NCBI GenBank assembly: GCA_900546635.1
Contig: URDS01000003.1
Span: 252 to 64,251, forward strand
DNA length: 64,000 nucleotides
Direction of reading: 5' to 3'
From: an uncultured Eubacteriales bacterium
Lineage (GTDB): Bacteria; Bacillota; Clostridia; Oscillospirales; CAG-272
Part shown: positions 11,718 to 27,385 of the stretch, piece by piece
Layout of the letters: the number at the start of each line of letters is the position of its first letter
Numbering within the stretch: the stretch's first letter is position 1
Notes under the pieces: generated by a model
Seen by the model: the letters and a program-made list of their open reading frames with translations, nothing else
The model's database searches: none
Told to the model about the DNA's origin: nothing
Translations under genes and position numbers: made by a program

Positions 11718-11838
11718 GCTTTTGCCGGGCTGTCCGCGCGTCCGCCGCCGGGCGCATGTGAGCTTTTGCCGGGCCGCCCGCGCGTCCGCCGACGGGCGCA
11801 TGTGAGCTTTTACCGGGCCGCCCGCGCGCCGCCGGCGG
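11709..11838. repeat. Three tandem ~44-bp units; the first contains the trmO stop codon
   Basis: GCGCATGTGAGCTTTTGCCGGGC.G.CCGCGCGTCCGCCG.CGG at 11709, 11752 and 11796. Confidence 0.8.
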
Positions 11839-12206: not shown

Positions 12207-13289
12207 TTGGAGACGGTGGTTTCGGTTGAGACAATGCGCCGCTCGGACGCCGGTACGATTGCGCGCGGCATTGACGGCCGCACGCTGATGTACCGCGCGG
12301 GGGAGGGGATTTTTTCCGCGTACCCCTGGCGGGGGCCTGCGGCGGTTGTGTGCGGCAGCGGGAACAACGCAGGGGACGGCTATGTGCTTGCGCTTTTGCT
12401 TGCGCGGGCGGGCGTTCCCTGCCGGATTTTTCTGCCGGAGGAACGCTTTTCCGAGGACGGACGCTTTTATTTCGAGCAGTGCCGCGCCGCTGGAATCGGC
12501 TTTGAAATTTGCGGCGGCACGCCGGATTTTTCGGGCTATGCCGAGATCGCCGACTGCCTGCTCGGCACCGGTTTTCGCGGCGAGGCGCGCGGAATGGCCG
12601 CGTCGGTGATTTCGCGCATCAATCAAAGCGGGGCTGCGGTCGTCAGCGCGGACATCAACAGCGGACTTTCGGGCGACGGCTTTCCGACCGGACTTTGCGT
12701 CGTCTCAGCGCTCACCGTTTCGGTGGGGTATTATAAGATCGGGCATTTTCTCGGCGCGGCGGATCAAAATATCGGCCGCCTTACGAACTGCAATATCGGC
12801 ATTGACCTCCTTGGCAAGGGGTATCCGCTGTTTTCTGCGGAGGAAGCGGCGGATTTTGCCTGCGGCGTCGGCGCGTCCGGCTTTGAGAATGCGAAAAACG
12901 CGGCCAAGCCGTTCAAAATGAATGCGTCCGATATGCCGGTGTGTCCCGGCGCGGCTGAAAGAGCGGCCGGAGCAGATACGGCGAGTACGCTGAATCGGCC
13001 GGGCGCGGAGAATGCCGCGTCTGCGGCAAAGCGTTTTTCTTTGGCGGCGCTGGCCGCGCGCGCGCCCGACGCGGAGCGCGGCGGCTTTGCGAGGGTGTTT
13101 GAGCGTGCGGAGGATTTGACGCGCGCCTTGGGCGGGGATGCGGGACTTGCGCCCATAGAGGCGGCGGAGCGGTACGCGCGCCGCACAGGCGGATGCGTTT
13201 TGCTCCGCGGGCGGGTTTCTCTGATAACCGACGGCGCGGATACTTGTTTTGTATGCCGCGCGCGCGAGGCGGATTTTATCGGATTGTAA
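12207..13289 (+). CDS. NAD(P)H-hydrate epimerase (YjeF N-terminal domain) with an atypical or decayed C-terminal extension
   Basis: TTG start at 12207, 7 nt after a GGAGGTG RBS. The epimerase domain is clear: VVCGSGNNAGDGYVLALLLARAG, DCLLGTGFRGEARG, VSADINSGLS. The last ~150 aa are Ala/Gly-rich and only faintly resemble the dehydratase domain (GGCVLLRGRVSLITDG). The ATP-binding motifs are missing. Confidence 0.7.
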   Translation: METVVSVETMRRSDAGTIARGIDGRTLMYRAGEGIFSAYPWRGPAAVVCGSGNNAGDGYVLALLLARAGVPCRIFLPEERFSEDGRFYFEQCRAAGIGFEICGGTPDFSGYAEIADCLLGTGFRGEARGMAASVISRINQSGAAVVSADINSGLSGDGFPTGLCVVSALTVSVGYYKIGHFLGAADQNIGRLTNCNIGIDLLGKGYPLFSAEEAADFACGVGASGFENAKNAAKPFKMNASDMPVCPGAAERAAGADTASTLNRPGAENAASAAKRFSLAALAARAPDAERGGFARVFERAEDLTRALGGDAGLAPIEAAERYARRTGGCVLLRGRVSLITDGADTCFVCRAREADFIGL

Positions 13290-13395
13290 CGCGGCGGCGC
13301 AAAGTCTTTTCGCCGCCGTGTTTGGAAAAACGGAAAACAGATCAAAAGATCCGCGTGAAAATTTTTTCACGCGGATCGCTGTCAAAAGAGTAAAA

Positions 13396-13486
13396 ATCGC
13401 AAATAAAATAAATATGTTTCCAAGGCGGACAAGTGCCGCCTTGGAAACACCTTACAGGCGCCCTCCTTGTTTTGGTTTTCCGACGG
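13396..13486. repeat. Dispersed structured repeat, copy A (short form)
   Basis: ATCGCAAATAAAATAAATATGTTTCCAAGGCGGACAAGTGCCGCCTTGGAAACACCTTACAGGCG... The 13-bp-stem hairpin lies at 13416-13448. Confidence 0.8.
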
Positions 13487-13549
13487 TTAAAGCCGCGTGA
13501 AAGAATTTTCACGCGGCTTTGTCTGTCAAAATATAGATTTCAGCGCATT

Positions 13550-13810
13550 TCAAAACCCATCGTCCGGAAACTTCAGCAATTTCCACGGTTCAATGCCGAG
13601 CGCGTCCGCAATGCAGAACAAAAGTTCAAGCGAAATCGGTTTCACCACGTTCGGCGCTTCCGCCATGCTGATGGTCGTGCGGCTGGTCTGCGCCTTTTCC
13701 GCCAGCCCCTCTTGCGTCATTCCGACAAGTTTGCGATAATACGCGATATTCAGTCCGAGCCGGATGTAGTTGTCTCGATGCAAAAAATCGACAGGTTTCG
13801 CTTTTGACAT
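13550..13810 (-). CDS. XRE-family HTH transcriptional regulator (phage repressor-like)
   Basis: 86 aa with the HTH LGLNIAYYRKLVGMTQEGLAEKAQTSRTTIS. Divergent from the structural genes. Confidence 0.85.
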   Translation of the reverse strand: MSKAKPVDFLHRDNYIRLGLNIAYYRKLVGMTQEGLAEKAQTSRTTISMAEAPNVVKPISLELLFCIADALGIEPWKLLKFPDDGF

Positions 13811-13895
13811 GGGTTCACCTCTTTCTCGCTCTCATAGATATACGTATAATTGTACCGGTAAAATGTGGAAATTCATACATTCTATTGTTTTGCTA

Positions 13896-13924
13896 TTGAC
13901 AAATAGAAGTTTGCAAGTCATAAT
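13896..13924 (+). promoter_or_regulatory. Candidate rightward promoter of the cassette
   Basis: TTGACA (13896-13901), 17 nt, CATAAT (13919-13924). It sits in an AT-rich divergent region, and the -35 element is embedded in an imperfect inverted repeat TCTATTG...CAAATAGA. Confidence 0.45.
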
Positions 13925-13968
13925 TATAAGTAGGTAAAATCAAGCGTTGAAATCAAAGGAGTAACAAG

Positions 13969-14295
13969 ATGGGAACAATCAACAAAAAAATGTTTTACAC
14001 ACCGGATATGGAACCGAGTTCAAGCCTGCGCGCGGAACTCGATATGATTGATACGCTGGCGGCGATGGACCTTGGCCGGCATCTTCTGGATTATATGGAC
14101 ACTTTGGCGCAAGAGGTTCGCGCGTCGGTAAAACGGGAACTGATGATTATCATTCGCGAGGTCATTGATATTCTGTCCGATAGTACGACGGATGATTTTA
14201 CGAAAGTGGATCAAATTGTAGATGTGTTCAACGAACGGGGAATCCACTGCGGCGGCTGCCACGATTTTGTGATTCCGCCTGAGGGAAGAGAGTGA
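13969..14295 (+). CDS. Hypothetical protein (108 aa), first rightward gene of the cassette
   Basis: ATG preceded by an AAAGGAG RBS. Acidic helical protein with a C-terminal CGGCH motif. No recognisable family. Confidence 0.55.
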   Translation: MGTINKKMFYTPDMEPSSSLRAELDMIDTLAAMDLGRHLLDYMDTLAQEVRASVKRELMIIIREVIDILSDSTTDDFTKVDQIVDVFNERGIHCGGCHDFVIPPEGRE

Positions 14296-14506
14296 AACGC
14301 TCTGCTTTTGCCGCGCTGTGAAAGCATCCGGTCTTTTGGTGCAAAGGGACCGGCCGGCTAAGCGGATTCGGGGATTGTTTTTTCTATCTTCGTATAGATC
14401 GCTCTGTCTTGCAAACGGATTTTGAATCTATAGTATGCCCCGTTCTATTTATATTATCAACCGTTTGCGCCAAAAAGGGGCGTTTCGGTCTTTATCCGTT
14501 AAAAAA

Positions 14507-14738
14507 TCAAAGTTTTTTGGCGATGAGGCGTACATTGGCGCCCCCCGCGGGGGCGTATTTTTGCCGCGCGCCGTTCTCGGCGGCGCTCGCGCGCCTGTAA
14601 GGTGTTTCCAAGGCGGCGCATGTCCGCCTTTTTCCGCCGCAAAACTAAGGTTTTGCGACGATAGGGCGCGTTCGCTCGCGCCGTCGCGCCGCCAATGGCG
14701 GCGCTGGCCGCCTTGTAAACGTATTTGATTTGCGATTT
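14507..14738. repeat. Dispersed structured repeat, copy B (reverse orientation, composite of more than one unit)
   Basis: Contains CCTGTAAGGTGTTTCCAAGGCGGCGCATGTCCGCC, CGCAAAACTAAGGTTTTGCG, GGGCGCGTTCGCTCGCGCCGTCGCGCC and the terminal GCCGCCTTGTAAACGTATTTGATTTGCGA. Confidence 0.8.
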
Positions 14739-14897
14739 TCACTTTTTTGACAGACTGCGGAGACGTTTCGTCTCCGTTTTTTTTATTTCATCGAAATACA
14801 GAAATTTCTGAACTTGCCGAAAAATCCCGGATCGCGCATGGATAATAAAAAGTGCGGCGGGGGACCGCCGAAATGCTTTGAAAAGGAGGAAGCCGAT

Positions 14898-15305
14898 ATG
14901 GAGAAAGCCAAACGGACAAACAAAGAGACGGCGTGTGGGGAAAGCCGCGAACACGGCGAAGCGTACAGCCCCGAAGAATCCGCCGCCCGCTCTGTTCTGT
15001 CCGAAAACGACCCTGAGATCGCCGATGTGCATGAAGTGCTCGCGGCGCTCAGCCGGATCGTGCGGCGCGAGGAGACCGAGGACGTACCGGTGAAGCTGCG
15101 CACCGAGACGCGCTCGGTGGACGCGGACGGGGAACCGGTCGTTGAGCGAAGCGAGCGCGTGGAGATGCAGGCGGCAAGGCCGCGTCTTTCGGATGTCAAC
15201 CGCAGCGCCGAACTGCTCGGCAAGTATTACGGCGTGTTCCGCGACCGCGTTGAGGGGAGCATCGCGCTGCCGGTCATGATCTGCGGCGAGGAAGACTTGC
15301 AGTGA
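14898..15305 (+). CDS. Phage terminase small subunit (P27-like)
   Basis: Start at ATG 14898 after an AAAAGGAGGA RBS. The C-terminal NRSAELLGKYYGVF pattern is typical of TerS. Its stop overlaps the terL start. Confidence 0.65.
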   Translation: MEKAKRTNKETACGESREHGEAYSPEESAARSVLSENDPEIADVHEVLAALSRIVRREETEDVPVKLRTETRSVDADGEPVVERSERVEMQAARPRLSDVNRSAELLGKYYGVFRDRVEGSIALPVMICGEEDLQ

Positions 15306-16633
15306 GCGAAGTGTACCTCCCCGATGTCGTCGGCGGCGGGTACGGTGCGTTTTGGCGCACGCGCGCCCGGTACCGGGTGGTCAAGGGCTCGCGCGCGTCC
15401 AAAAAAAGCAAAACGGCGGCGCTCTGGTATATCTACCATCTGATGCGCCATCCGGAGGCCAATCTCTTAGTCGTGCGGCGGACCTACCGGACGCTGGAAC
15501 GCTCGGCGTTTGCCGAACTGAAGTGGGCGATTTCACGTTTCGGGGCGGAAAAGCTCTTTGAGGCCAAAACCGCGCCGCTGGAAATCACGCTCAAATCGAC
15601 TGGTCAGAAAATTTTTTTCGCGGGGCTGGACGATCCGCTGAAGCTTACTTCCATGACCGTTTCGCGCGGCGTGCTCTGCTGGATGTGGATCGAGGAAGCT
15701 TTTGAGATCGACTCGGAGGAAGCGTTTGACACGCTCGACGAATCCATTCGCGGAGAGGTGCCGCCCGGCCTTTTCAAGCAGATAACGCTCACCTTTAACC
15801 CATGGAGCGACTCGCACTGGTTAAAGCGCCGCTTCTTTGACCGTCACGCCCCCGATATTTTCGCCATGACCGTCAATTACAAGGTTAACGAATGGCTGGA
15901 CGCGGCGGATTTACGGGTCTTTGAGGAAATGCGCCTGCGCGACCCCGAACGATACCGCGTTTGCGGACTGGGAGAATGGGGCGTCGGCGGCGGGCAGTTT
16001 TTCTCGGAGTTCCGGCACGACGTGCATGTCGCAGAACCCGGTCCGCTGCCCGCCGGGGCGCGGATCTACCGGAGCATTGACTACGGTTTGGACGCGCTGG
16101 CCTGTTTGTTTGTCGCGGTGGACTCGGCCGGGCGGGCGCTGGTCTTTCGCGAGGTGTACGCGCACGATCTGATCGTTTCCGAGGCGGCGGAGGCGATTCA
16201 AAACGCCTCTGCGGATTTAGACGTGTACTGCACCTTTGCGCCGCCCGACCTCTGGTCGCGCCAAAAGGACAGCGGCAAGAGCATCGCGACGCTCTTTGCG
16301 CGCGGGGGCGTGCCGCTGTCCTGCTCGGACAACAGCCGGGTAGGCGGCTGGCTTGCGCTCAAGGAGTGGCTGAAAATTCAGCGCGCCCCCGACGGCGGCG
16401 AGGACGCGCGGATGAAGATTTTTTCAACCTGCGAAAATCTGATTCGCTGCCTGCCCTCGCTTGTGGGCGACAAAAAGCGCGTCGGCGACTGCGAGACCGA
16501 GCCGCACGAGATCACGCATCTGCCGGACGCGCTCCGCTATTTCGCGGTGATGCAGACAAGCGCGCCGCGCGCGCAGCGCACGGTGAGCGTCCGGGATTTC
16601 ACGGGGCGCGGAAGCCGGGGCAAGCGGTTTTGA
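15302..16633 (+). CDS. Phage terminase large subunit
   Basis: 443 aa with a GTG start. Walker-A-like VVKGSRASKKSKT, then RRTYRTLERSAFAELKWAI, a LWIEEA-type Walker B (MWIEEAFE), and a C-terminal nuclease region (IDYGLD...). Confidence 0.88.
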   Translation: MSEVYLPDVVGGGYGAFWRTRARYRVVKGSRASKKSKTAALWYIYHLMRHPEANLLVVRRTYRTLERSAFAELKWAISRFGAEKLFEAKTAPLEITLKSTGQKIFFAGLDDPLKLTSMTVSRGVLCWMWIEEAFEIDSEEAFDTLDESIRGEVPPGLFKQITLTFNPWSDSHWLKRRFFDRHAPDIFAMTVNYKVNEWLDAADLRVFEEMRLRDPERYRVCGLGEWGVGGGQFFSEFRHDVHVAEPGPLPAGARIYRSIDYGLDALACLFVAVDSAGRALVFREVYAHDLIVSEAAEAIQNASADLDVYCTFAPPDLWSRQKDSGKSIATLFARGGVPLSCSDNSRVGGWLALKEWLKIQRAPDGGEDARMKIFSTCENLIRCLPSLVGDKKRVGDCETEPHEITHLPDALRYFAVMQTSAPRAQRTVSVRDFTGRGSRGKRF

Positions 16634-16919
16634 CTCTGGCGGGCGTTTTCAGCCGTGTTTGCGGCTTCGCCCCGCCCAAACCGGAATTGCCGCCCTGCCC
16701 GAACCGCACCCCGCCGCGAAACCGCGGATCCCCGCGCCGAAAAAGCCGGCGCGCAGCGCGAAAGACAACTTGACCGTCGTGCGGTCTGGGATTTCCGCGT
16801 TGAAAACGCCGCGCGCAGCGCGAAAGAAAACCCGGCAGCGCGCAGCCTGCCAAAATCCCGCGGCGGCGGGGCAAAATCGCCGCCGCCGCGGGCAAGTCCG
16901 ATAAAGGAGAAAAAACAAT

Positions 16920-17099
16920 ATGAAACAAATCACGGCAAAGCCGGCAAGGCATATCTGCTCGGTGGCCTCGTGCAGAAACACCGACTGCTTCCGCGTCTCG
17001 GGCAGTCCCAATCTGCTCGGCGGCTTTTACATCTGCGCCGACTGCGCGGGGCAGATCTACAAGCTGACCCGGCCGAAAAAGGCGGCAAAGCATGACTGA
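16920..17099 (+). CDS. Small Cys-rich (zinc-ribbon-like) protein, 59 aa; absent from the ORF track
   Basis: ATG 16920 after AAAGGAGAAAAAACAAT. Translation: MKQITAKPARHICSVASCRNTDCFRVSGSPNLLGGFYICADCAGQIYKLTRPKKAAKHD. C-x4-C ... C-x2-C spacing. Confidence 0.5.
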   Translation: MKQITAKPARHICSVASCRNTDCFRVSGSPNLLGGFYICADCAGQIYKLTRPKKAAKHD

Positions 17100-17286
17100 G
17101 GTGCTCGGACTTGCGTTTTGCGCCGCCGTACTTTTGCTGGAGGCGCTTCACCGCCGGGAGCGCGCCGCGCTTCTTTCCCGCCTTGACGGGGCGCGGCCGG
17201 CAAAAAAAGCAAAGCTGATGCATGCATCGGCGCACAGACGGGCGCTTGCGCGCCAGAGAGGAGGGGACGGCCATGAGTCTGTTTAA
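17092..17286 (+). CDS. Small hypothetical protein (64 aa, N-terminal hydrophobic helix)
   Basis: ATGA overlap with the previous ORF. It overlaps the portal start by 14 nt, a translational-coupling layout. Composition is weakly informative. Confidence 0.35.
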   Translation: MTEVLGLAFCAAVLLLEALHRRERAALLSRLDGARPAKKAKLMHASAHRRALARQRGGDGHESV

Positions 17287-19150
17287 ATTCAAAGAAAAAA
17301 CCAAGCCGCGGGGCGAGTACAAGGAAGACATTCTCGCCATGATCGACGCCGAGTGCCGCCGCCGTCACACGGAGCGCAGGCCGCTTGAGCTTCGCTGGAT
17401 GCTTTCGTCCAATTTTTACGCGGGGCACCAGTACTGCGACATCAATCCGTACGGCAGCGAGCTTGAGGACTACGCGCCCCCCTACGACTATATGGAGCGC
17501 GGAATCTACAACCGCATCGCGCCGCTGATCGACACGCGCATCGCCAATTTCAAGGCGCTCGATTTTTCGATGGAGGTCAGCCCCGCGACAAGCGAGCTTG
17601 CGGATTATGAAAAAAGTCTGATCGCCACGAGACTTCTCCGCCAGACGCAGTATAAATGCGATTTCCTTTCCAAAAAGGATTCCATGATTCTGTGGAGCGA
17701 GCTCTGCGGCACGGCCTTTCTGCTTTCGTGGTGGGACAAAAGCAAGGGGGACGCCTGCCGCGTCGGGGATGAGATTCTGCCGATGGGCGATCTGGATTTC
17801 GGCGTGCTCACGCCCTATGAGGTCCTGCCTGAGAGCATTTACAAGGAAAACCTCGCCGACCAGACTTCCGTGATTCTTGAACAGGTGGTGAGCGTTTCCG
17901 AGGTGGACAGGCGGTACGGCGTGCGGGTAAAGCCTGCGCAGGTCGATTCGTATGCGCTCGGCGTTTCGCCGGGCAGCGGCGGCTTCGGCTACACGGGCGC
18001 GACTTTTTCCATCGCCTACCGCAAGCCCGAAAATTCCACCTACGTGCGCACTTACATGGAAAAACCGAACGCGCGCTATCCCTCCGGGCGCATGATTATC
18101 GCGACGCCCGACCGCATTTTGTATTACGGGACGCTGCCGATCGACGAGTACCCGCTGGTTATGCTGCGCTGCAAAAACGCGGCCGGGATGTTCTTCGGGC
18201 GCTCGGTCATTGAGGATCTGATTCCGCTTCAGCGCGCGTACAACGGCGTGAAGAACAAGATTCACGACTACATCCGCACGCTGGCGCTCAACCCGCTGCT
18301 TGTGCCGGAGGGCGCGGTTGAGGACATGGAGGAGCTTGCGCAGAACGGAGTCGCGCCCGGCGACATTGTTGAGTACAACCCCGACCGCGGCGAGCCGAAG
18401 CCGCTTGCGAGCGCGGATTTCCCAAGCAGTGTGTTTGAAGAGTGTCAAAATCTGGCAAGTGAGATGGAATACGCCGCCGGACTTTCGCATCTGGGCGCGA
18501 CCGGCAACCAATCTTCCGCCCTGACCAGCGCGAGCGCGATCGAGCGCCTGCGCGAGATCGACGGCATCCGGCTTGCGCTGACGGCCGACTTGATCCGCGC
18601 CGCGGTGTTGCGCGCCGGTAAAATCTGGCTGAAGCTCTACAAGGCGCACGGAAGCTTTACGCATATCGAGCGGCTGACCGGCGCAAACGACCGGTCGGCG
18701 ATGCTTGTCTGGTGCGGCGAGGATATCAATTCCTACGACATCGTGTTTGAAAGCGAAAACACGCTGCTGCACAGCGACGAAAGCCAGATCGAAGCGATCC
18801 GCAGCGGAATCGCGCTCGGCCTCTTCGAGGACGAAACGGGCAGGATCCCGCGCGGCGTGAAGAAAAAGCTGCTCTGCCGGATGCACATCGGCGACTTTGT
18901 GCGCACGCTCTACGAAGACGATCTGCAAAGCGCGGCGGCGCGGCGGGAAAACGGCGAACTGCTTTCGGGCGCGCCGCTTGCGACCGGCGCGTGCGACGAC
19001 CATGAGATTCACATAGCCGAGCACCGGCGCGCCGCGCTGGAGTATTCCTATTATAAGATGAAGCAGCGCGATCCCCGGCGCGCGCAGGCGCTGGAGGACC
19101 ATATCGCCGAGCATGTAAAAATTTTCAAGGAGAAGAAGGAAAATGGATAA
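17273..19150 (+). CDS. Phage portal protein
   Basis: 625 aa from ATG 17273 (RBS GAGGAGGGGA). Its size, its position after terL, and its sequence character (RWMLSSNFYAGHQY..., acidic C-terminus) fit a portal. Confidence 0.8.
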   Translation: MSLFKFKEKTKPRGEYKEDILAMIDAECRRRHTERRPLELRWMLSSNFYAGHQYCDINPYGSELEDYAPPYDYMERGIYNRIAPLIDTRIANFKALDFSMEVSPATSELADYEKSLIATRLLRQTQYKCDFLSKKDSMILWSELCGTAFLLSWWDKSKGDACRVGDEILPMGDLDFGVLTPYEVLPESIYKENLADQTSVILEQVVSVSEVDRRYGVRVKPAQVDSYALGVSPGSGGFGYTGATFSIAYRKPENSTYVRTYMEKPNARYPSGRMIIATPDRILYYGTLPIDEYPLVMLRCKNAAGMFFGRSVIEDLIPLQRAYNGVKNKIHDYIRTLALNPLLVPEGAVEDMEELAQNGVAPGDIVEYNPDRGEPKPLASADFPSSVFEECQNLASEMEYAAGLSHLGATGNQSSALTSASAIERLREIDGIRLALTADLIRAAVLRAGKIWLKLYKAHGSFTHIERLTGANDRSAMLVWCGEDINSYDIVFESENTLLHSDESQIEAIRSGIALGLFEDETGRIPRGVKKKLLCRMHIGDFVRTLYEDDLQSAAARRENGELLSGAPLATGACDDHEIHIAEHRRAALEYSYYKMKQRDPRRAQALEDHIAEHVKIFKEKKENG

Positions 19151-19691
19151 TCGTGAATTTCCGGCGCTCGACTTCGCAGCGCTTGCCGCTCTGCCGGAGG
19201 ACGAACGCGCCGGCGCGCTCGCGGACTATGAAACGGCGGTGCGCGCCTATGCCGAGGACACCGGAAGGTCGGACGCGGCGGATGAACTCCGGCGCGCGCG
19301 CTACGAGGCGGCAAAGTACAAGATGGCGGCGGACGCAAGCTTTGCGGACTTCGGCGGGCGCATGGAGGCTGTCGAGCGCATTCTGGCCGAAACGCCCGCG
19401 CTCGACGCGCTCCCGGACGAGGAAAAGCTCCGCATGGCCTACTATATCGACCGCGGGATGCAAAAGAGCGCCGAACCGACCGCAGAAGAGCTTCTCGCGG
19501 CTGTTCGCCGCTCGCCCGAAGTGATGCGGACGCTTGAAGCGTCCTTCGCGGCCGCGCTCACGGCCAAAGACGAACCGGCGCTTTTTGCCAGCGCGGGCAA
19601 TTTCAGTATGCCCGCGACCGTGCGTGAAAAACCCAAAACCATAGGCGAGGCCTCCGCGCTTGCGCGCGAGGCGCTCGGACTAAAATCGTAA
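19143..19691 (+). CDS. Putative scaffolding protein
   Basis: 182 aa, helical and Ala/Glu/Arg-rich, lying between portal and capsid. Overlaps the portal stop. Confidence 0.55.
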   Translation: MDNREFPALDFAALAALPEDERAGALADYETAVRAYAEDTGRSDAADELRRARYEAAKYKMAADASFADFGGRMEAVERILAETPALDALPDEEKLRMAYYIDRGMQKSAEPTAEELLAAVRRSPEVMRTLEASFAAALTAKDEPALFASAGNFSMPATVREKPKTIGEASALAREALGLKS

Positions 19692-19704
19692 AGGAGAAAA
19701 AACA

Positions 19705-20922
19705 ATGGCACAAATTTTGACAAAGGTGGAAGCGATTCTCAAGGACAAGTATCAGCCCGCGCTCTGCAATCAGATCAACACGGAGCCCTCGCCCTTTCTG
19801 GAACGCATCAAAAAGGTCCCGCTGAAAAACAACACCATCAAGTGCGCCGCGCCTATAGGCATCAACGGCGGCTTCGGCTTTGGCGCGGAGGGCGTCGGCA
19901 CGCCCAAGGCGGGCGCGCAGCGCTATGCCTGCTTCGAGCTTGACGCGGTTGACATGTATGTCGATCTGCAGATTTCCAACAAGACCGTCGAACTGGCCAG
20001 CAGCAACGCCTCGTCCATGATTAACGCGCTGGACGGCGAGATTCGCGGTTCGTATGCGGCCGCGAAATGGAACATCGGCCGCGCGCTCTTCGGGGACGGC
20101 AGCGGCAAGCTGGCCGCCGTCAGCGCGGCGAGCGCGGCGAGCGGCGTGACCACGCTCACGCTTGACAGTGTGAAAAACGTGATCGAGGGACTGCGGATCG
20201 ACCTGTACAACACGCCGTCCACAGGCGACCCGACGCTGACCGACGCCAATTCGGGCAAGCGCATCATTTCGGTTGACCGCGCCGCAAAGAAGATCACGGT
20301 AGACGGCACGCTCACGCTCGGCGCAACCGGCGGATTCATCACCGTGCAGGGCAGCTACAACCGCGAGCTTTGCGGTCTCGGCGCCATCTTCACGGGCAGC
20401 AGCATCTACGGGCTTTCCAAGACCGACAATCCCTGGCTTGCGCCGACCGTCGTGGACGCGAAAAACGATCTGACCGATCTTGTGCTCTACCGCGGCGTCA
20501 AGCAGGCTAAGGATTACAAGGGCGCGTCTATCGACCTCATTATGATGGGCGACGACGCTTTCCTGGCTTACCAGGACTACATCCACACCAACAACATCAC
20601 CGTAGCCGACAAATATCAGTTTATCGGCGGCGCGGTCGGATACAAGGTGCTGGTCGGTTCCAGCGAGGTCGTGATCGTCAACGAGCGCTTCGTTCCCGAC
20701 GGGGAGGCCTGGGGCGTGGATACCTCCACGTTCTACCTTGAGGCGACGCCCTGGAACTTCATGGAAAAGGACGGCGGCATCTTCGTGCCGATGCCCGACA
20801 CCTCGATTTTCCGCGCGCTGCTTGCCTCTTATGGCAACCTGATGTGCGAAAATCCGGGCGGCGTGGTTCGCTTTACAAACGCGGGCGCCGCGGCTTCGAC
20901 GAGTAGTGGTTCGGGAACCTAA
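19705..20922 (+). CDS. Putative major capsid protein
   Basis: 405 aa with a strong RBS (AAAGGAGAAAAAACA). The position and the Gly/Ala-rich beta-type composition fit a capsid, and a hairpin follows at 20935-20960. Confidence 0.7.
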   Translation: MAQILTKVEAILKDKYQPALCNQINTEPSPFLERIKKVPLKNNTIKCAAPIGINGGFGFGAEGVGTPKAGAQRYACFELDAVDMYVDLQISNKTVELASSNASSMINALDGEIRGSYAAAKWNIGRALFGDGSGKLAAVSAASAASGVTTLTLDSVKNVIEGLRIDLYNTPSTGDPTLTDANSGKRIISVDRAAKKITVDGTLTLGATGGFITVQGSYNRELCGLGAIFTGSSIYGLSKTDNPWLAPTVVDAKNDLTDLVLYRGVKQAKDYKGASIDLIMMGDDAFLAYQDYIHTNNITVADKYQFIGGAVGYKVLVGSSEVVIVNERFVPDGEAWGVDTSTFYLEATPWNFMEKDGGIFVPMPDTSIFRALLASYGNLMCENPGGVVRFTNAGAAASTSSGSGT

Positions 20923-21004
20923 AGGAAAGCCGAACGGCTGAAGCCCGAGGGCTTCAGCCGCAGAACAATCCGTCCCGGAAACGGAACGGCGGATTCTATA
21001 AGGA

Positions 21005-21175
21005 GTTTACAAGGCGGACATGCGCCGCTTTGTAAACACCTTACGGGCACGCGAGCGCCGACCGTAGGAGGCGCGACGACGCGAGTGAACGTGCCCCATC
21101 GTCGCAAAACCTTGGTTTTGCGGCGGATTAAGGCGGCGCATGTCCGCCTTGTAAACATAGTTTATTTGTAAATTT
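21005..21175. repeat. Dispersed structured repeat, copy C (full-length, ~170 bp, with terminal inverted repeats)
   Basis: Left end GTTTACAAGGCGGACATGCGCCGCTTTGTAAAC. Core ACCTTACGGGCACGCGAGCGCCGACCGTAGGAGGCGCGACGACGCGAGTGAACGTGCCCCATCGTCGCAAAACCTTGGTTTTGCGGCGG. Right end AAGGCGGCGCATGTCCGCCTTGTAAACATAGTTTATTTGTAAAT. Confidence 0.85.
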
Positions 21176-21229
21176 TTACTGTACAGGGGGCGGTGCGCCG
21201 TCCCCTGTTTTCAAAAACGGGAGGATCGT

Positions 21230-21571
21230 ATGGATCTGAAAAAATTATACGGCGACTGCACGGTGCTGTGCGGCAGTGAACCGCCGCTCTACACATTTTT
21301 CGTGCATCTGGATATGGGGGTGCGCGCGCTGCTTGCGCGCTATCCGAAAAAGCTGCTTTTTTCGGAGGGGGAATACGCGCCGCCCGAAACGCTGTCGGAC
21401 GAGCTTGGGCTGCGCGAGGAATTTTATCTGCCGCTGCTCTGTTTTGTGGCATGCAGAAACGGCGGGGACAAGGCGCTTGACAAAACCTTTTCGGAGAGCG
21501 CCGAGGCGGCCTATCTCGGTCTTTGGCGCAAGCAGGCGCGTTCGCTGCGCAGAAAGGGGGATGTTTGGTAA
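21230..21571 (+). CDS. Hypothetical phage protein (113 aa), possible head completion/adaptor
   Basis: GGGAGGA RBS upstream. TAATG overlap with the next gene. Role inferred from position only. Confidence 0.5.
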   Translation: MDLKKLYGDCTVLCGSEPPLYTFFVHLDMGVRALLARYPKKLLFSEGEYAPPETLSDELGLREEFYLPLLCFVACRNGGDKALDKTFSESAEAAYLGLWRKQARSLRRKGDVW

Positions 21572-22137
21572 TGTTTTCGGCTGATATAACGGTAGGGGAA
21601 CTGCTTTCACAGGTGCAAAATGCATTTTTGCCGGCGCTGGAGATTCCACAGGCGTATCTGCTCTGCGAATACAACGCGCTGCTCCGCGCGCTCTATCTTT
21701 CGCTGCCGGGCGGGGATGAGACCCAAAAAATTGAGGCTGCGGACGGGCTTTTGCCCATTTTGGGCTCCCCGGCGCGCGTACGCCGCGTCTTTTTCGGCGA
21801 CCGAGAACTGCTTCGCGGCTCGCCCGCGCTGCTTGACGTTCTGCCCGACTATCCGCTGTTTTGCCCCGTGTCGGGCGGACTGCGGGTTCCCTATGACGGG
21901 GAATATACACTGCTTTTGCGTTCGCTGCCCGCGGCGCTCACGTCCGCGGAGGCGGCCACGTGCGCGGTCATGCTCGAAAACGAGGATGTTCCGATGATGC
22001 GCGCCTATCTGTTTCACCGCGCCTATCTGTATGCGGCGGACGGCGCGTGCGCCAATCTCTACGGCGCGGAATACAACCGTTTGCTGGAGGAGTTCCGGCG
22101 TGTGAGGGGAGTGCTCCGATGCGCGGACGAAGATTAA
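21571..22137 (+). CDS. Hypothetical phage protein (188 aa)
   Basis: Start at ATG 21571, coupled to the upstream stop. No recognisable motif. Confidence 0.5.
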   Translation: MFSADITVGELLSQVQNAFLPALEIPQAYLLCEYNALLRALYLSLPGGDETQKIEAADGLLPILGSPARVRRVFFGDRELLRGSPALLDVLPDYPLFCPVSGGLRVPYDGEYTLLLRSLPAALTSAEAATCAVMLENEDVPMMRAYLFHRAYLYAADGACANLYGAEYNRLLEEFRRVRGVLRCADED

Positions 22138-24008
22138 ATACCGAAAAGTTGCCCGCCACAGCGCGCAAAATTCTGGAAATCACCGACTTTTCGGGACTTT
22201 GCGACCGCGGCGCCGAGACCGGGAGTCTGCTCCTCGCCGACGGGATCCGCGTGCTGTCCGAGGGCGCGCTCGCCTCAATTCTCGGCAGTGTGCAGGTGAG
22301 CGTCGGGCAGAGCACGCTGCACCCCGGTGTATATACGCTCTATGACTGCTATGACAGCGTATATGAAACGCCGGTGAATACGGATTTTATCTATCGCAAC
22401 ATCTGTCCGGAGGATGTCATGGCCTATTCCGAAACCGAGACGGCGGCCTCCCGCGTACTGGTCGGGGAGAATTTGCTGCCCGGAAAGACCGCGGACGGCT
22501 ACCGCAATCTGCTCGGCGCGTACGCGGACGATAAGGCGTTTTACATTTTCTACGACGCGGTGCTCAACATCATCGATCATCGGCGAACCGATTCTTTTGA
22601 GTCGGTCGGAAGCGGCATCGTCGTGCAGTTTGAAAACCTCAAATCGACGACCTCCACCTACGCCTATACCGTGCACCAGCTTTGGCTGGACATGGTTACG
22701 CCGCGCACAGGCACGGTCGTATCCAAAATGATCGGCGCGGAGCGGACGCAGTTGTTTTCGGTGCCGGTAAGCCGCGAGCGGGCGACGCTTGTGTCGGAGG
22801 ACAGGCAGACCTATCGCTATGTTTCCTCCGCGTATACGCCCGATCTCGGCGCCGTCTATATTCCCCGCCCGGACACGCTGTATACCGACGATTACGCGGA
22901 ACTCGGCGAGAGGCGTCCCGAATACGAGACCTACGTCGAGGGAATGACGGTTGCGCACTACCGGAAGTATCTGACGGCCATCGGCGGCACGCCGGTGGGC
23001 GGGCGCGACTATGTGTTGGTTCTGCCGACGATGCAGATTTTAACGGTGAGCGGCGGGAGCATTTCGGTAGAGGCGCCGAGGAACGATATGCCACCGATGG
23101 AGCAAGCCGTACAGCATTTCGGGCGGCTTTTCGGTATTTTCGGAACCGAGATCTACGCTTCGAGAAACGGCGACTGCACCGACTTTACGCTGCCCGCGCC
23201 CGGAAGCACGGATGCGTCGGCCGCCTGGACGGCGACGACCGCGGGCAGGGAGGGCGCGTTTACCGCGCTTGCTTCTTTTGACGGCAAAATCGTGGCGTTC
23301 ACCGAAAAATCCATGCTGACCGTGGAGGGAAGCGAGCTTCCGTTTTCGCTTTCCTATGTGGGCGCGCACGGCTGCCGGTCGCAGTCGGCGCTGGCCGCAT
23401 GCGGGTCGTATCTCTATTTCGTCTCGGACGCGGGCGTGATGCGGTACAACGGCACCTCGGTGAAGTCGATTTCAAGCGACCTTTTGCCCGATTCGCTTGC
23501 GGATGCGTCGCTTTGCGCGACCGACGGGACGCTGCTGCTTTGTCTGCCGCTGTCCAAAACGATCTATATGTACGATTTGGCAAGCGAGATATGGAGCAGC
23601 CGGCGCGAGCACGAGGCGGAGATGCGTCTCTTCGGCGCGGGAAACATGGCCGCGCTCGTGTTAGAGCAAGGGCAGGGACAGCAGCTTCGGCTTGTAAACG
23701 GCGGCGCGGCGCAGTATGCGTTTGCGTTGCTTTTGGATTTTCCGCAGCGGCGGCGCATTTACAGAATTTCGCTCACTGCCGAGCTTGAAGCGGGCACGAC
23801 GCTCTCGGTTTCGGGCGCGGACGGGGATGCGATGTTCTCGACCACAGGGACGGACGGAAAGGTTCGCGCCTATTCGTTTGTGCCCCAAAATCTATATATG
23901 GAAAGCGGCGTTTTGCGCTTTTTCGGCGTGGGGCGCATCAAGCTTCACACACTGCGGCTGGAATACGCCGAGGTTGAAAACACATTTGGGAGGTATGGCA
24001 TATGCTGA
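22119..24008 (+). CDS. Large virion structural protein (629 aa), putative short-tail/nozzle or beta-propeller-like component
   Basis: ATG 22119 overlaps the upstream gene. The C-terminal half has repeated beta-strand patterns (GKIVAFTEKSMLTVEG, GSYLYFVSDAGVMRYNG, DGTLLLCLPLSKTIYMYD). Confidence 0.5.
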   Translation: MRGRRLNTEKLPATARKILEITDFSGLCDRGAETGSLLLADGIRVLSEGALASILGSVQVSVGQSTLHPGVYTLYDCYDSVYETPVNTDFIYRNICPEDVMAYSETETAASRVLVGENLLPGKTADGYRNLLGAYADDKAFYIFYDAVLNIIDHRRTDSFESVGSGIVVQFENLKSTTSTYAYTVHQLWLDMVTPRTGTVVSKMIGAERTQLFSVPVSRERATLVSEDRQTYRYVSSAYTPDLGAVYIPRPDTLYTDDYAELGERRPEYETYVEGMTVAHYRKYLTAIGGTPVGGRDYVLVLPTMQILTVSGGSISVEAPRNDMPPMEQAVQHFGRLFGIFGTEIYASRNGDCTDFTLPAPGSTDASAAWTATTAGREGAFTALASFDGKIVAFTEKSMLTVEGSELPFSLSYVGAHGCRSQSALAACGSYLYFVSDAGVMRYNGTSVKSISSDLLPDSLADASLCATDGTLLLCLPLSKTIYMYDLASEIWSSRREHEAEMRLFGAGNMAALVLEQGQGQQLRLVNGGAAQYAFALLLDFPQRRRIYRISLTAELEAGTTLSVSGADGDAMFSTTGTDGKVRAYSFVPQNLYMESGVLRFFGVGRIKLHTLRLEYAEVENTFGRYGIC

Positions 24009-25072
24009 TTAATATAAAGGCGGACGGCTGCCGTCTGTTTGCCGACCAGCCGGTGATTGCCAGCGGGTCGGTCGGGACGGTGAATGTGCGGTTTTGCTTG
24101 GATCCGCTGTGGGCGGATTATCAAAAGAGCGCGGTTTTCCGCGCCGGCGGCAAAAAATACACGATGCTTTTGACGGGCGACACCTGCGCGTTTCCGCAGG
24201 AGGCGCTGCAAAGGAGCGGCGAGGTGCATCTCGGCCTTGTGGGTGTTTGGGGCGGCAAAACGCTGACCAGCACCATGTGCCGCCTTGTGGTTTCGCCCGG
24301 CGCGCCGAAAAACGGGCAGGAGAGCGAAAATTATACGCCCGGACTGTATGAGCAGTTCGCGGCAAAATTTTCAAAATTCGAGAACATGACGGCGACCGCC
24401 GTGCAGGGCACCGAAACAAAGGTCAGCGTGACCACGGACGATACGGCCATGCGGCTGGATTTCACGCTGCAAAAGGGCGAGACGGGCGCGCAGGGCGCGC
24501 AGGGCGAGGCCGGCGGTTATTATACCCCGTCTGTTGACAGCGCGGGCAACCTGAGTTGGAGCGCGAGCAAATCCGGTATGCCGAGTGTCGGCGGCGCCTA
24601 TATCCGCGGCGAAAAGGGAGACGCCTTTACCTACGCGGACTTCACCGAGGAACAACTCGCGGCGCTGAAAGGCCCGAAAGGGGACACCGGCGCGAAAGGC
24701 GATACAGGCGCGGCCGGAGCGCCGGGCGCGGCGGCGGGCTTTGGTACGCCGACGGCGACGGTAAACGCAAACACGGGTACGCCGAGCGTCACCGTGACGG
24801 CCAGCGGCGCGGATACCGCAAAGGTGTTCAGCTTCGCGTTCGAAAACTTAAAAGGCGAAAAGGGCGATCCGGGAAGCGTTGAAAATATACCCGCCGCATC
24901 CGCCACGGCGGCGGGCGTTATCAAAATCGGAAGCGGGCTGAAAATCGACGCAGGCGGCACTGCGAGCGTGGACACGGTAAGCGCCGTCACGCAAAACAGC
25001 ACAAAGCCTATCACGTCCGGCGCGGTGTACGCGGCTATAGGGAACGTCGAGTCCCTGCTCGCGGCAATATAG
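24002..25072 (+). CDS. Tail fibre-like protein with collagen-like G-X-Y stretches
   Basis: GETGAQGAQGEAG, GPKGDTGAKGDTGAAGAPGAAAG and GEKGDPG triplet runs. 7-nt overlap with the upstream gene. Confidence 0.65.
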   Translation: MLINIKADGCRLFADQPVIASGSVGTVNVRFCLDPLWADYQKSAVFRAGGKKYTMLLTGDTCAFPQEALQRSGEVHLGLVGVWGGKTLTSTMCRLVVSPGAPKNGQESENYTPGLYEQFAAKFSKFENMTATAVQGTETKVSVTTDDTAMRLDFTLQKGETGAQGAQGEAGGYYTPSVDSAGNLSWSASKSGMPSVGGAYIRGEKGDAFTYADFTEEQLAALKGPKGDTGAKGDTGAAGAPGAAAGFGTPTATVNANTGTPSVTVTASGADTAKVFSFAFENLKGEKGDPGSVENIPAASATAAGVIKIGSGLKIDAGGTASVDTVSAVTQNSTKPITSGAVYAAIGNVESLLAAI

Positions 25073-25082
25073 GAGGGGCGGT

Positions 25083-25631
25083 ATGAGTATTGCAACGCAA
25101 ATCACACGGCTGAAAAATGCGAAAACCGCGCTTGCCTCCGCGCTGTCGGGCAAGGGCATAACTGTTCCGTCCGCGACAAAGCTTGACGGCTACGCGGCGC
25201 TGCTGAGCGGCGCCGCCGCCGTGGTCAACGTATCGGGCGACACGGTAACGGCCGACAAGCTGGCAAAGGGCTACACCGCGCACAACGCGGCGGGCACGCA
25301 AATCACGGGAACGATGGAAGCGGGCGGCGAGACCGCGACGCTGACGGTAGACAATGGCACAAGCTCGGCCATATCGGCTAAACTATACAATTTCGACGGT
25401 ACGGAGACCGCGCTTTCCTTCCCGAGCGGAACCTCCTCCCATACCGTGCCGAAATACGCATTTATCGAAGTCGATTCCGGCGGTTGTTACGCGGAATCTT
25501 ATACGGGGTGCAAAGCTTATTCCTCTGTGTCGCAGTATAACCCCGACATTGGCGATTTTGAACTGTATTTCGCCGGTTTGCTGGTTACGGCTTCTCAGGC
25601 AACTGTAAGTATATCTTACAATTATGTATAA
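25083..25631 (+). CDS. Hypothetical tail/fibre-associated protein (182 aa)
   Basis: GGAGGGG RBS. The N-terminus MSIATQITRLKNAKTALASALSGKGITVPS resembles fibre/assembly proteins. Position supports this. Confidence 0.45.
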   Translation: MSIATQITRLKNAKTALASALSGKGITVPSATKLDGYAALLSGAAAVVNVSGDTVTADKLAKGYTAHNAAGTQITGTMEAGGETATLTVDNGTSSAISAKLYNFDGTETALSFPSGTSSHTVPKYAFIEVDSGGCYAESYTGCKAYSSVSQYNPDIGDFELYFAGLLVTASQATVSISYNYV

Positions 25632-25674
25632 GCAATGTGCGAGCGAACGGTATACATACAGGAGGTGAATCAAA

Positions 25675-25908
25675 ATGACCTGGGAAATCATACTCGGCAT
25701 CATTACGCTTGTCGGCTTCGGCCTCTCGGTAATCACGCCGATTATCAAGCTCAATTCGAGCATAACCAAACTGAACTGCTCGATTGACAGCTTAAATCAG
25801 AACATGGCGCGCAACGAAGCGCGCATCACGCATCACGGCGAGCAGCTTGACAACCACGAGCACCGGCTTACTGTGCTGGAGGCGAAGGAGAAAGGAGACA
25901 AGGGATGA
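25675..25908 (+). CDS. Small membrane protein, N-terminal TM plus coiled coil (lysis accessory or holin-like)
   Basis: 77 aa. TM segment WEIILGIITLVGFGLSVITPII is followed by a heptad-like region. AGGAGGTGA RBS. Confidence 0.55.
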   Translation: MTWEIILGIITLVGFGLSVITPIIKLNSSITKLNCSIDSLNQNMARNEARITHHGEQLDNHEHRLTVLEAKEKGDKG

Positions 25909-26477
25909 TTATACCGTTTGAAACGGAGCAGGTAAAACTGACCTCCCCTTACGGGGAACGAACCTTAAACGGGCAGACGAATTTTCATACCGGATACGAC
26001 CTTGTGGGCGTCGGTTCAAAGAACGTGACGGCGGTTGAGAGCGGCACGGTCGTGCGTTCCCGAATCGTGACCGACAAGCAGAATCTCACATGGCAGTGGG
26101 GCAATTATGTTTGTGTGAAAACGGCGGCCGGACAGTACCATTATTACTGTCATTTGGACTCGCGCGCGGTGCGCGAGGGGCAGAATGTGAAAGCCGGCGA
26201 AAAGCTCGGCGTGATGGGGAACACGGGCTATTCGTTCGGTGCGCATCTGCATTTTGAGGTGCGGCGCGCGGACGGAAAAACGAAAGTCAATCCGGAGGAA
26301 GTGCTGCAAATTCCGAACGCGGTCGGCACATACGCGCGCATGTCGCTGAGCGCGGCGGTGGATGCGCTGCAAGCGCGCGGCGTGCTGTCAAGTCCGGAGT
26401 ATTGGAAGAAAAACGCGGAAAAACTGCAATATCTGCCCGATCTGATCCGCAACATGGCGGAGGCGCTTGCGCGATGA
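25905..26477 (+). CDS. M23-family peptidase endolysin
   Basis: HTGYDL ... GNTGYSFGAHLHFEVR (the HxxxD and HxH zinc motifs of M23). C-terminal ~50 aa contain the motif GVLSSPEYWKKNAEKLQYLPDLIRNMAEAL. Confidence 0.82.
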   Translation: MIIPFETEQVKLTSPYGERTLNGQTNFHTGYDLVGVGSKNVTAVESGTVVRSRIVTDKQNLTWQWGNYVCVKTAAGQYHYYCHLDSRAVREGQNVKAGEKLGVMGNTGYSFGAHLHFEVRRADGKTKVNPEEVLQIPNAVGTYARMSLSAAVDALQARGVLSSPEYWKKNAEKLQYLPDLIRNMAEALAR

Positions 26478-26725
26478 GGGAATTTTCAAAATGCGTGATC
26501 GCGCTTTTGATCGGCGCATGGTTTTTGTGCGCGCTGCTCGGCATCGCGGTCGTCCTCGTGCAGCTTGTGCGCGGGGACTGCGCCGTGAATCTGTCGGATC
26601 TTTTGCTGTATATCGGCGCGCCGATGACCGGCGGCATTGTGAGCTATATGCTCAAAAGCGCCTATGAGAACAAAGAGAAAATAAAGGGCGGCCATACGGA
26701 GCCGCCCCAGATTGATGAGGTGTGA
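26474..26725 (+). CDS. Two-TM small membrane protein (holin-like)
   Basis: ATGA overlap with the endolysin stop. TM segments VIALLIGAWFLCALLGIAVVLV and LLLYIGAPMTGGIVSYML. Confidence 0.55.
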   Translation: MREFSKCVIALLIGAWFLCALLGIAVVLVQLVRGDCAVNLSDLLLYIGAPMTGGIVSYMLKSAYENKEKIKGGHTEPPQIDEV

Positions 26726-26728
26726 GCA

Positions 26729-26935
26729 ATGAAAGAGCTTTTAAGAAAAGTGGGCAGCCGGAAATTTCTGGTGGCGGTGACGGGCGTCGTGAGCGGCATT
26801 GTGCTGATTGTCGGCGGCAATGTGACCGAGGGGGTGACGGCGGTTGTCGCCTCCGTGGTGGCGTATCTTGCGGCGGAGGGCATTGTGGATATGGCCGCCG
26901 TCAAAAAAGCGATCTGCGAGCAGGAAGAAAAATAA
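26729..26935 (+). CDS. Phage holin (LL-H-like small holin)
   Basis: 68 aa. SRKFLVAVTGVVSGIVLIVGG ... AVVASVVAYLAAEGIVD, with a charged C-terminus. Confidence 0.65.
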   Translation: MKELLRKVGSRKFLVAVTGVVSGIVLIVGGNVTEGVTAVVASVVAYLAAEGIVDMAAVKKAICEQEEK

Positions 26936-26973
26936 ACCGCCCGCCGCGTCGTAAGACGTTGGGTTATACAAAA

Positions 26974-27000
26974 GGCAGCCGCTTCCAGCGGCTGCCTTTT
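26974..27000 (+). terminator. Rho-independent terminator closing the lysis module
   Basis: GGCAGCCGC ttcca GCGGCTGCC followed by TTTT. Confidence 0.7.
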
Positions 27001-27002
27001 GA

Positions 27003-27385
27003 GCGTCGAAAAACCAAGGTTTTGCGGCGATGGGGCGTATTCTCGCGCCGTCGACGGCGGCACTCGCACGCCTGTAAGGTGTTTACAAGGCGGCACATGT
27101 CCGCCTTTTTCCGCCGCAAAACCTTGGTTTTGCGGCGATGGGGCGCGTATAGGCGTGAGGAGGGGCATGAGGGGGTACCAGGCGTCAGCCTGGGGGAGTC
27201 CTGATGCCAAAAAGGAGGGGCCCTGCGCAGCCGGGAGGCGTCCTGACGCCAAAAAAGAGCCCCCTTTTCGGGCGGTATATTCGCGCCGTCGCGCCGCCGA
27301 CGGCGGCGCTCGCGTATCAGCGCGTTCGCTCGCGCCCCGATACGCAAGTGCAAAGCATACTTTATTGCAAAATTGCAAAGTTCGG
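27003..27385. repeat. Dispersed structured repeat, locus D (composite array of ~380 bp, several partial units)
   Basis: Contains AAAACCAAGGTTTTGCGGCG, CCTGTAAGGTGTTTACAAGGCGGCACATGTCCGCC, a second CGCAAAACCTTGGTTTTGCGGCG, GCGCCGTCGCGCCGCCGACGGCGGCGCTCGCG and a terminal TTTATTGCAAAATTGCAAAG. Confidence 0.75.

Follow-up and report, generated by a model that had tools for sequence, protein, structure and literature searches.

A putative podovirus-derived, gene transfer agent-like particle locus in the chromosomes of Clostridia

The described system closest to the locus reported here is FpGTA, a podovirus-like gene transfer agent (GTA) of Faecalibacterium prausnitzii, in Clostridia (Borodovich et al., bioRxiv 2024, Nat Commun 2026; PMC12946183). 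It is encoded by a 10.5-kb operon and a 5.5-kb fibre/lysis operon that lie 125 kb apart, and its capsids, ~40 nm across, hold 8.4-8.9 kb of DNA each (PMC12946183). The small terminase subunit (TerS) of both FpGTA and the alphaproteobacterial RcGTA is reported to be without an N-terminal DNA-binding domain (PMC12946183). The same study measured capsid-mediated packaging at scale in the human gut and reported GTA-type uptake of host fragments, 4-10 kb long, in Christensenellaceae (HGM11616, QANA01), Oscillospiraceae, Onthomonas, Gemmiger, CAG-115, UBA1829, UBA11524 and others, without identification of the loci (PMC12946183, Supplementary Data 1); the locus responsible for packaging in the gut is known so far for Faecalibacterium only (PMC12946183). 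Here I describe a compact phage-derived cassette in a 64,000-nucleotide stretch of DNA from an uncultured Eubacteriales bacterium (contig URDS01000003.1, positions 252 to 64,251), hereafter the window. A first-pass annotation of the window held that no GTA had been described in Clostridia, a claim that is outdated because FpGTA has now been published. I found no description of the present cassette family in the literature searched.

The cassette is probably a vertically inherited, podovirus-derived, GTA-like particle locus, a prediction from its genes that I hold with moderate confidence. It occupies window positions 13550-26935 (~13.4 kb) and begins with a leftward XRE-type regulator gene and orf108, followed by closely spaced rightward genes that form a single contiguous block of 12.1 kb, of which TerS is the first (14838-26935; Table 1). 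Its open reading frames (ORFs) were searched against Pfam, PHROGs and NCBIfam, and its neighbours were read from the identical public contig with precomputed Pfam hits. No integrase, excisionase, primase or replication gene was found among the cassette ORFs by these searches, and no integrase or replication gene among the Pfam-annotated neighbours within +/-10 kb. The cassette is bordered by host genes: to its left are TrmO and a YjeF_N protein, to its right a secreted protein, a DUF2200 protein, tRNA-Met and tRNA-Gly. The GC content shows no break at the cassette borders relative to the flanks. No flanking direct repeats or att-like sites were found besides a dispersed repeat family described below. 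The locus is a chromosomal cluster of head, tail and packaging genes without modules for replication, integration or lysogeny maintenance, a composition by which GTAs are recognised. The first-pass annotation had listed these genes, called both flanks chromosomal and reported no integrase or replication protein, and the ORF listing and family searches bear it out on each count; every element that it listed is present. Both of the tiny ORFs that it placed between the large terminase subunit (TerL) and the portal exist, but only one, which encodes a Cys-rich 59-aa product, is conserved in relatives.

Relatives of the cassette are widespread. A single capsid query found them in 68 species-representative genomes, a capsid profile query gave at least 536 confirmed stretches, and a third scan, with a capsid of group C (defined below) as query, added about a dozen more loci, all of them in metagenome-assembled genomes (MAGs). 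Altogether, at least ~500 species-representative Clostridia genomes carry a relative, and relatives in the protein database number in the thousands. Many carriers are labelled Christensenellaceae, Onthoplasma, Fimimonas, Borkfalkia or Oscillospiraceae, and all are Clostridia. I sorted the relatives by capsid identity to the window into group A (78-96%), group B (57-65%) and group C (30-37%). The ~160 loci inspected are all compact, have host genes on both sides and retain intact genes in nearly every case, with one cassette copy per genome. Their common core consists of six genes in constant order (TerL-portal-scaffold-capsid-adaptor-nozzle). Profile comparison with hhalign shows that the scaffold (95% probability, E 4e-8), the adaptor (96% probability, E 2e-9) and the nozzle are homologous between groups A and C, and in ~16 group A species each core gene is spanned end to end by one tblastn high-scoring segment pair. 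Annotation of the flanks covered five neighbourhoods with Pfam hits, which between them represent all three groups, plus ten further proteins. The five neighbourhoods contain no integrase or replication gene and have host genes on both sides; the extra proteins, among them glutamine synthetase, a P-type ATPase, transporters and an aminopeptidase, are also those of the host.

Near-identical phages, which the first-pass annotation had named as evidence that would overturn a GTA-like reading, did not turn up: the isolated phages that come closest, Jasminevirus (45 kb), are only 21-25% identical in portal and capsid. IMG/VR yielded five matches in 2.9 million contigs. Three of these are full-length (L075-L077) and none of the three has terminal repeats. 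In the other two (L078/L079), a type I restriction-modification island (HsdM, HsdS, HsdR) with a YpsA/DprA-like gene cuts off a group C cassette just past the capsid gene, and these contigs, although catalogued as viral, look like host DNA. Because of the missing terminal repeats and the island, the IMG/VR contigs lend no support to free virus genomes. Only two damaged cassettes were seen among the inspected loci, the one cut by the island and L071 (7287-9133), a metagenome variant of the P0041 cassette in which the nozzle gene is split into ORFs of 439 aa and 161 aa.

Every cassette gene is under purifying selection, with ratios of nonsynonymous to synonymous divergence (dN/dS, Nei-Gojobori) of 0.05-0.45; the range is 0.05-0.13 for the capsid and 0.06-0.12 for TerL. 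In species pairs with the cassette at the same locus, its synonymous divergence (dS) is about that of the flanks (0.28-0.64 versus 0.42-0.54 in the pair L011/L012), and the amino-acid identities of the head genes match those of flanking housekeeping genes. Distances of capsid, portal and TerL follow those of RNase J in Christensenellales (Mantel r 0.92-0.96, n=15, p=0.0005) and those of the flanking deacetylase (Mantel r 0.87-0.95, n=23, p=0.0005), and the capsid protein diverges more slowly than RNase J. The structural-plus-lysis-only cassette recognised by the first-pass annotation is accordingly conserved and selected.

Gene context points in the same direction in group C, which is found in Christensenellales. 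The same left flank of TerL, made up of a polysaccharide deacetylase, an SSB-like protein, an 800-900-aa membrane protein, a 166-200-aa protein and an SH3_3 membrane protein, recurs in dozens of species from several families, whose right flanks each have genes of their own (such as ispG-rimP-nusA-infB or RNase J). Within groups A and B, loci are shared by subclades: L007 and L069 both lie between yabP-yabQ-divIC-fumarase-acpS and a MacB-type transporter. In the group C loci L036-L068 and L084-L141 (for example L144, 341-5900) the 166-200-aa protein and the oppositely oriented SH3_3 membrane protein always stand directly upstream of TerL. These upstream genes may belong to the system, in regulation or lysis, or may merely reflect conserved synteny. 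Vertical inheritance and purifying selection, by which GTAs are also recognised, are both found, with the caveat that groups A and B do not keep one context across their subclades. The comparison across related genomes that the first-pass annotation had proposed thus gave intact frames, purifying selection and co-divergence with the flanks, but not one fixed locus, as the context differs even at 94% capsid identity.

The packaging genes resemble those of known GTAs in one specific respect. The Terminase_2 match of TerS spans only profile positions 59-136 of 141, conservation in the alignment of its family is confined to the last ~100 residues, and the family profile aligns with residues 74-148 of the 164 of SF6 G1P (3zqp; E 9e-5) only, a region that corresponds to the oligomerisation core and not to the N-terminal helix-turn-helix domain. 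As weak further evidence, residues 1-58 are disordered in a single-sequence AlphaFold2 (AF2) model. Judged by these alignments, TerS is cut down to its oligomerisation core and its N-terminal DNA-binding domain is gone, another trait by which GTAs are recognised. TerL looks intact by comparison with its family. Six positions count as invariant, with at least 95% identity among 111 family members: G29, K35, E132, D260, D316 and D409, which comprise the Gly and Lys of Walker A, the Glu of Walker B and three Asp of the nuclease. Two candidates for TerS homologues in the more distant cassettes, a gene of ~100 aa after TerL in group C and a gene of 111-150 aa before TerL in group B, received no support from hhalign. 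In L076, a group B locus, an HNH endonuclease gene (2426-3064) is inserted after TerL.

The structural genes place the ancestor of the cassette among podoviruses. The 629-aa protein was identified as a tail nozzle by fold alone, since profiles of the capsid, nozzle, adaptor and 113-aa proteins gave nothing useful against PDB sequences. An AF2 model built from an alignment with 18 homologues (pLDDT 79.7, pTM 0.76) shows a beta-propeller, and its top 18 Foldseek matches in PDB are all entries for podovirus portal-tail complexes. They include the SU10 tail (7z47_G, 4e-13), the T7 nozzle gp12 (7boy) and the P22 complex with gp10 (8u10); Sf6, Pa223 and several cyanopodophages are further matches, and matches in BFVD include P22 Gp10-like proteins. 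From the fold of the nozzle and the SU10_adaptor match of an adaptor orthologue, I conclude that the short tail is composed of portal, adaptor, nozzle and fibre. Distant members of the capsid family carry PF17236 (SU10_MCP), and the portal, capsid, adaptor and nozzle belong to the SU10/P22-type podovirus structural lineage. The first-pass annotation listed tape measure and prohead protease among the missing genes; their absence does not point to reduction, since podoviruses that assemble on a scaffold normally do without either.

The genes for fibres and lysis complete the operon. The collagen-like fibre is conserved across group A species over residues ~1-170 and variable at its C-terminus, and the 182-aa protein that follows it has no orthologue in the relatives L001 and L002, in which the fibre gene is longer. 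L001 (9566-10915) has one fibre of 449 aa where the window has a 356-aa fibre and the 182-aa protein, yet the two capsids are 96% identical. A fibre tip that varies so fast and is swapped between such similar cassettes suggests real adsorption to cells. The holin-like gene adjoins the M23 gene throughout group A. The fibre of L076 (11354-13036) carries a Peptidase_S74 intramolecular chaperone domain. Group C cassettes often have no recognisable fibre and endolysin genes and end in a ~300-aa coiled-coil DUF7934 protein (L042, 13053-13949; L144, 13048-13941), with a holin-like gene next in some lineages; by analogy with FpGTA, their fibre and endolysin functions may reside at a second locus.

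Taken together, these features suggest how the locus could work. It would descend from a short-tailed phage of the SU10/P22 type that was domesticated, became fixed in the chromosome and has retained only the genes for making particles. The local XRE-type switch would govern the rightward operon, with the strong promoter-like site 5' of orf108 and the terminator-like hairpins of the TerS leader as possible control points. Portal, scaffold and capsid protein would form a procapsid without a protease, and the core-only TerS would recruit TerL without site specificity, so that heads would fill with any cellular DNA. Adaptor, nozzle and collagen-like fibres would finish a short tail, and the holin-like proteins and the M23 hydrolase would lyse the producer cell. 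The particles would be expected to hold less DNA than the length of the locus and to deliver it to recipients. Without functions for replication, integration or excision, such a cassette would persist only through vertical inheritance and selection at the level of the host, as GTAs do.

Several observations weigh against this reading. Every carrier seen is a MAG, including those returned when a cultured carrier was sought with a Christensenella-labelled capsid query, and the cassette is known here from genes alone. An XRE repressor adjoining the operon is a prophage-like trait, and a consensus scan found no promoter-like site directly 5' of TerS. The 12.1-kb gene block may also package itself. 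The chief point against strict immobility is the genomic context, which varies within groups A and B: the ~16 group A species alone show six or more different sets of flanks, and L002, with a capsid 94% identical to that of the window, shares no flank with it. The varying context means either that the block has moved or that rearrangements are frequent. In addition, no DNA-ejection or internal core proteins were recognised in the cassette, and a particle that packages DNA and leaves it undelivered fits the same data. Such a particle would be a PBSX-like defective phage or a bacteriocin that kills competitors or lyses part of the population. It would need the same genes as a GTA, TerL falls in the PBSX terminase family (TIGR01547), the lack of recognised ejection proteins speaks for it, and a receptor-binding fibre end that varies fast even among near-identical cassettes is what one expects of a targeting device; the authors of the FpGTA study keep the same possibility for their particle (PMC12946183). 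I nevertheless consider it unlikely. Killing by PBSX needs a contractile tail, whereas the cassette has a podovirus adaptor and nozzle and no contractile tail module (sheath, tube, tape measure or baseplate) was detected among its ORFs; the strong conservation of TerS, TerL and portal suggests moreover that it matters that heads are filled with DNA.

A changing context would also be explained by a minimal mobile phage-like element or satellite that borrows replication and integration from its host or a helper and spreads its own genome horizontally. The conserved unit does run from the XRE gene to the last membrane gene while the flanks differ among close relatives, an XRE switch is present (with an ImmA-like M78 peptidase nearby in L002), and 13.4 kb in total could fit a small head. 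However, the hallmarks of mobility sought here (integrase, excisionase, primase, replication gene and att-like direct repeats) were not found, cassette and flanks have the same dS in same-locus pairs, and distances correlate closely with those of host genes. One copy per genome, a handful of IMG/VR matches free of terminal repeats where checked, and the presence of tail genes, which capsid-forming satellites do without, make this explanation quite unlikely. It is highly improbable, and already contradicted by the data, that the locus is an ordinary decaying prophage which retains its late genes by chance, the null hypothesis of the first-pass annotation. The cassette is phage-derived, has lost all but its late genes, and its spacers have been invaded by repeats resembling miniature inverted-repeat transposable elements (MITEs), all of which speak for decay. 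Decay would not, though, keep one and the same reduced set of genes whole in well above 100 species, with frames unbroken in the ~16 close ones, a wide and syntenic distribution, dN/dS well below one in all genes, invariant catalytic residues in TerL, co-divergence with the host and a capsid that evolves more slowly than RNase J. The repeats are intergenic only and recent, no remnants of an integrase, att site or replication gene were found in the cassette, and the copies that are genuinely damaged (the island-cut cassette and the split nozzle) look different. A GTA-like locus is therefore the reading that I retain.

At the regulatory end of the cassette, the XRE gene diverges from the rightward genes and is kept in the closest relatives only (88% in L002), and orf108 is 90% identical in L001 and 69% in L002, with a dN/dS of 0.16. 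In L002 (238-840, 2350-2640), an ImmA/IrrE-type M78 peptidase lies ~1.5 kb upstream of the XRE gene, which hints, from gene neighbourhood, at an induction switch with a cleavable repressor; no M78-type peptidase adjoins the XRE gene of the window. A search of the cassette against Rfam found no regulatory RNA, only a weak L20-leader match under its gathering threshold. The MITE-like family, with cores AAGGCGGCGCATGTCCGCCTT and CGCCGCAAAACCTTGGTTTTGCGGCG, has inserted at five places in the window. All are intergenic and four fall in spacers of the cassette, and inverted copies bracket the XRE-orf108 module. As neither L001 nor L002 has the repeats in its orthologous cassette, the invasion must be recent. 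I considered whether the repeats at the cassette ends are att sites and rejected this, as they are mutually inverted, occur also inside the cassette and ~6 kb beyond it, and are missing from the orthologous cassettes. On the left flank, the ORF that the first-pass annotation called nnr-like (11766-13289) reads as 507 aa from its first start and as 360 aa in the public call, and the only domain found in it is YjeF_N; the 147 extra upstream codons, rich in Arg and Ala, are probably non-coding.

Table 1. Coordinates (window positions), strand and supporting evidence for the genes, control elements and repeats of the cassette.
Feature	Position	Strand	Evidence
MITE-like hairpin repeat, left edge	13379..13461		inverted versus copies 14567-14753 and 27004-27313
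XRE-family helix-turn-helix regulator, 86 aa	13550..13810	-	Pfam HTH_3 3.4e-8; PHROG transcriptional repressor families
Sigma-70-like promoter 5' of orf108	13896..13924	+	TTGACA-17-CATAAT, 11/12 consensus matches; pattern match only
orf108, 108 aa, possibly a regulator	13969..14295	+	no Pfam or PHROG match
Terminator-like hairpins in leader before TerS	14538-14556, 14757-14777		T-run after each
MITE-like repeat in leader before TerS	14567-14753		leader feature including hairpins, 14567..14777
TerS-like	14838..15305	+	Terminase_2, C-terminal part only; phrog_51 5e-8
TerL, ATPase and nuclease	15302..16633	+	Terminase_3 8.5e-53; TIGR01547 3.4e-37
Cys-rich 59-aa ORF	16920..17099	+	tblastn identity 50-98% across group A; no family match
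Portal	17273..19150	+	P22_portal 3.6e-17; SU10_portal 3.6e-8; phrog_156 5e-25; start from public gene call
Scaffolding protein	19143..19691	+	position between portal and capsid, profile homology; no protease domain
Major capsid protein, podovirus type	19705..20922	+	phrog_14242 8.6e-43; NF033394 4.5e-34
MITE-like repeat, spacer between capsid and 113-aa genes	21005..21175		repeat-family search
113-aa virion-module protein	21230..21571	+	conserved in groups A and B; no family or PDB match
Head-to-tail adaptor, 188 aa	21571..22137	+	orthologue in L145 matches PF24175 SU10_adaptor (weak)
Tail nozzle, 629 aa, beta-propeller	22119..24008	+	AF2 fold and Foldseek
Collagen-like tail fibre, 356 aa	24002..25072	+	G-X-Y runs in translation; PHROG tail-fibre families
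Distal fibre / receptor-binding candidate, 182 aa	25083..25631	+	weak match phrog_13589; lineage-specific
Holin-like membrane and coiled-coil protein, 77 aa	25675..25908	+	DUF7365 8.6e-6; phrog_1296 holin 9e-5
M23 peptidoglycan endopeptidase, endolysin candidate	25905..26477	+	Peptidase_M23 1.8e-23; phrog_3578 endolysin 1.7e-26
Small membrane protein, 83 aa	26474..26725	+	public gene call; conserved in group A; dN/dS 0.17
Small membrane protein, 68 aa, last cassette gene	26729..26935	+	group A identity 52-97%; dN/dS 0.07
MITE-like repeats at right edge, 2 or 3 copies	27004..27313		repeat-family search
MITE-like repeat ~6 kb past right end	33330-33480		repeat-family search

The cassette could explain the GTA-type packaging reported in related families for which no locus has been identified. 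Its six-gene core, present in hundreds of Clostridia species, is a concrete candidate locus for Christensenellaceae, Onthomonas, Gemmiger, CAG-115 and others, and long-read virome data already available offer a way to check it. If it proves true, this would be a second, independent podovirus-derived GTA lineage, and few routes of gene flow in gut anaerobes would be as widespread. More tentatively, and with rather less confidence than one would need to call it probable, a single ancient domestication of an SU10-like podovirus may have been inherited across orders of Clostridia (Christensenellales and Oscillospirales-like; at least ~500 species), with a depth like that of RcGTA and independently of FpGTA, and may be the source of the 4-10 kb packaging seen in the gut. 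A practical consequence is that contigs of this kind, where MAG and virome catalogues call them 'viral', can in fact represent loci of the host.

How does the cassette compare with the systems already known? The capsid-forming phage-inducible chromosomal islands (cf-PICIs) are chromosomal elements of 10-15 kb that encode their own capsid, portal and terminase, together with an integrase, regulators and a replication module; they have no tail genes and hijack the tails of helper phages. The cassette, in contrast, has its own adaptor, nozzle and fibres and neither integrase nor replication gene. With podoviruses of the SU10/P22/T7 type it shares the types of portal, capsid, adaptor and nozzle and assembly on a scaffold without a protease, but these are autonomous phages of 40-77 kb with modules for replication, transcription and ejection proteins, whereas the cassette is without replication and early-gene modules. 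PBSX of Bacillus subtilis is, like the cassette, a defective phage-like element of a Gram-positive host with a TerL of the same family; its heads contain ~13 kb of host DNA, and the cell that makes them is lysed. It differs in being a killer particle with a contractile myovirus tail encoded by a cluster of ~28 kb, while the cassette encodes a short tail with adaptor and nozzle.

The two GTAs are closer in organisation. RcGTA is likewise a structural cluster (~15 kb) that is inherited vertically under purifying selection, has a TerS without the DNA-binding domain, and carries no replication or integration genes (PMC12946183). However, its particle is of the siphovirus kind, its genes include a tape measure and a prohead protease, and lysis and fibres are encoded elsewhere, controlled by the host's CtrA and quorum sensing, whereas the podovirus-like cassette has its own lysis genes and a local XRE-type regulator. 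FpGTA, which is backed by particle, proteomic and packaged-DNA data while the cassette is a prediction from genes, is organised in two operons instead of one contiguous block. It has a Prp-like protein between portal and capsid, where the cassette gene has no Prp match in Pfam or PHROGs. Its capsid is named 'N4-gp56 family' (PMC12946183, Supplementary Data 2), whereas the cassette capsids of groups A, B and C match NF033394 only; the cassette thus combines an NF033394/SU10_MCP-type capsid with a TerL of the Terminase_3/PBSX family. Faecalibacterium is absent among the 80 capsid-profile matches listed of at least 536. Since the capsid families differ, in a comparison by NCBI family names only, the cassette appears to represent a different lineage from FpGTA. 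The two nevertheless share a gene order that starts with a TerS devoid of the DNA-binding domain and continues through TerL, portal, scaffold and capsid to conserved hypothetical proteins, and each also has a fibre, a holin and an endolysin; both are found in gut Clostridia, do without replication and integration genes, and are nearly ubiquitous within a clade.

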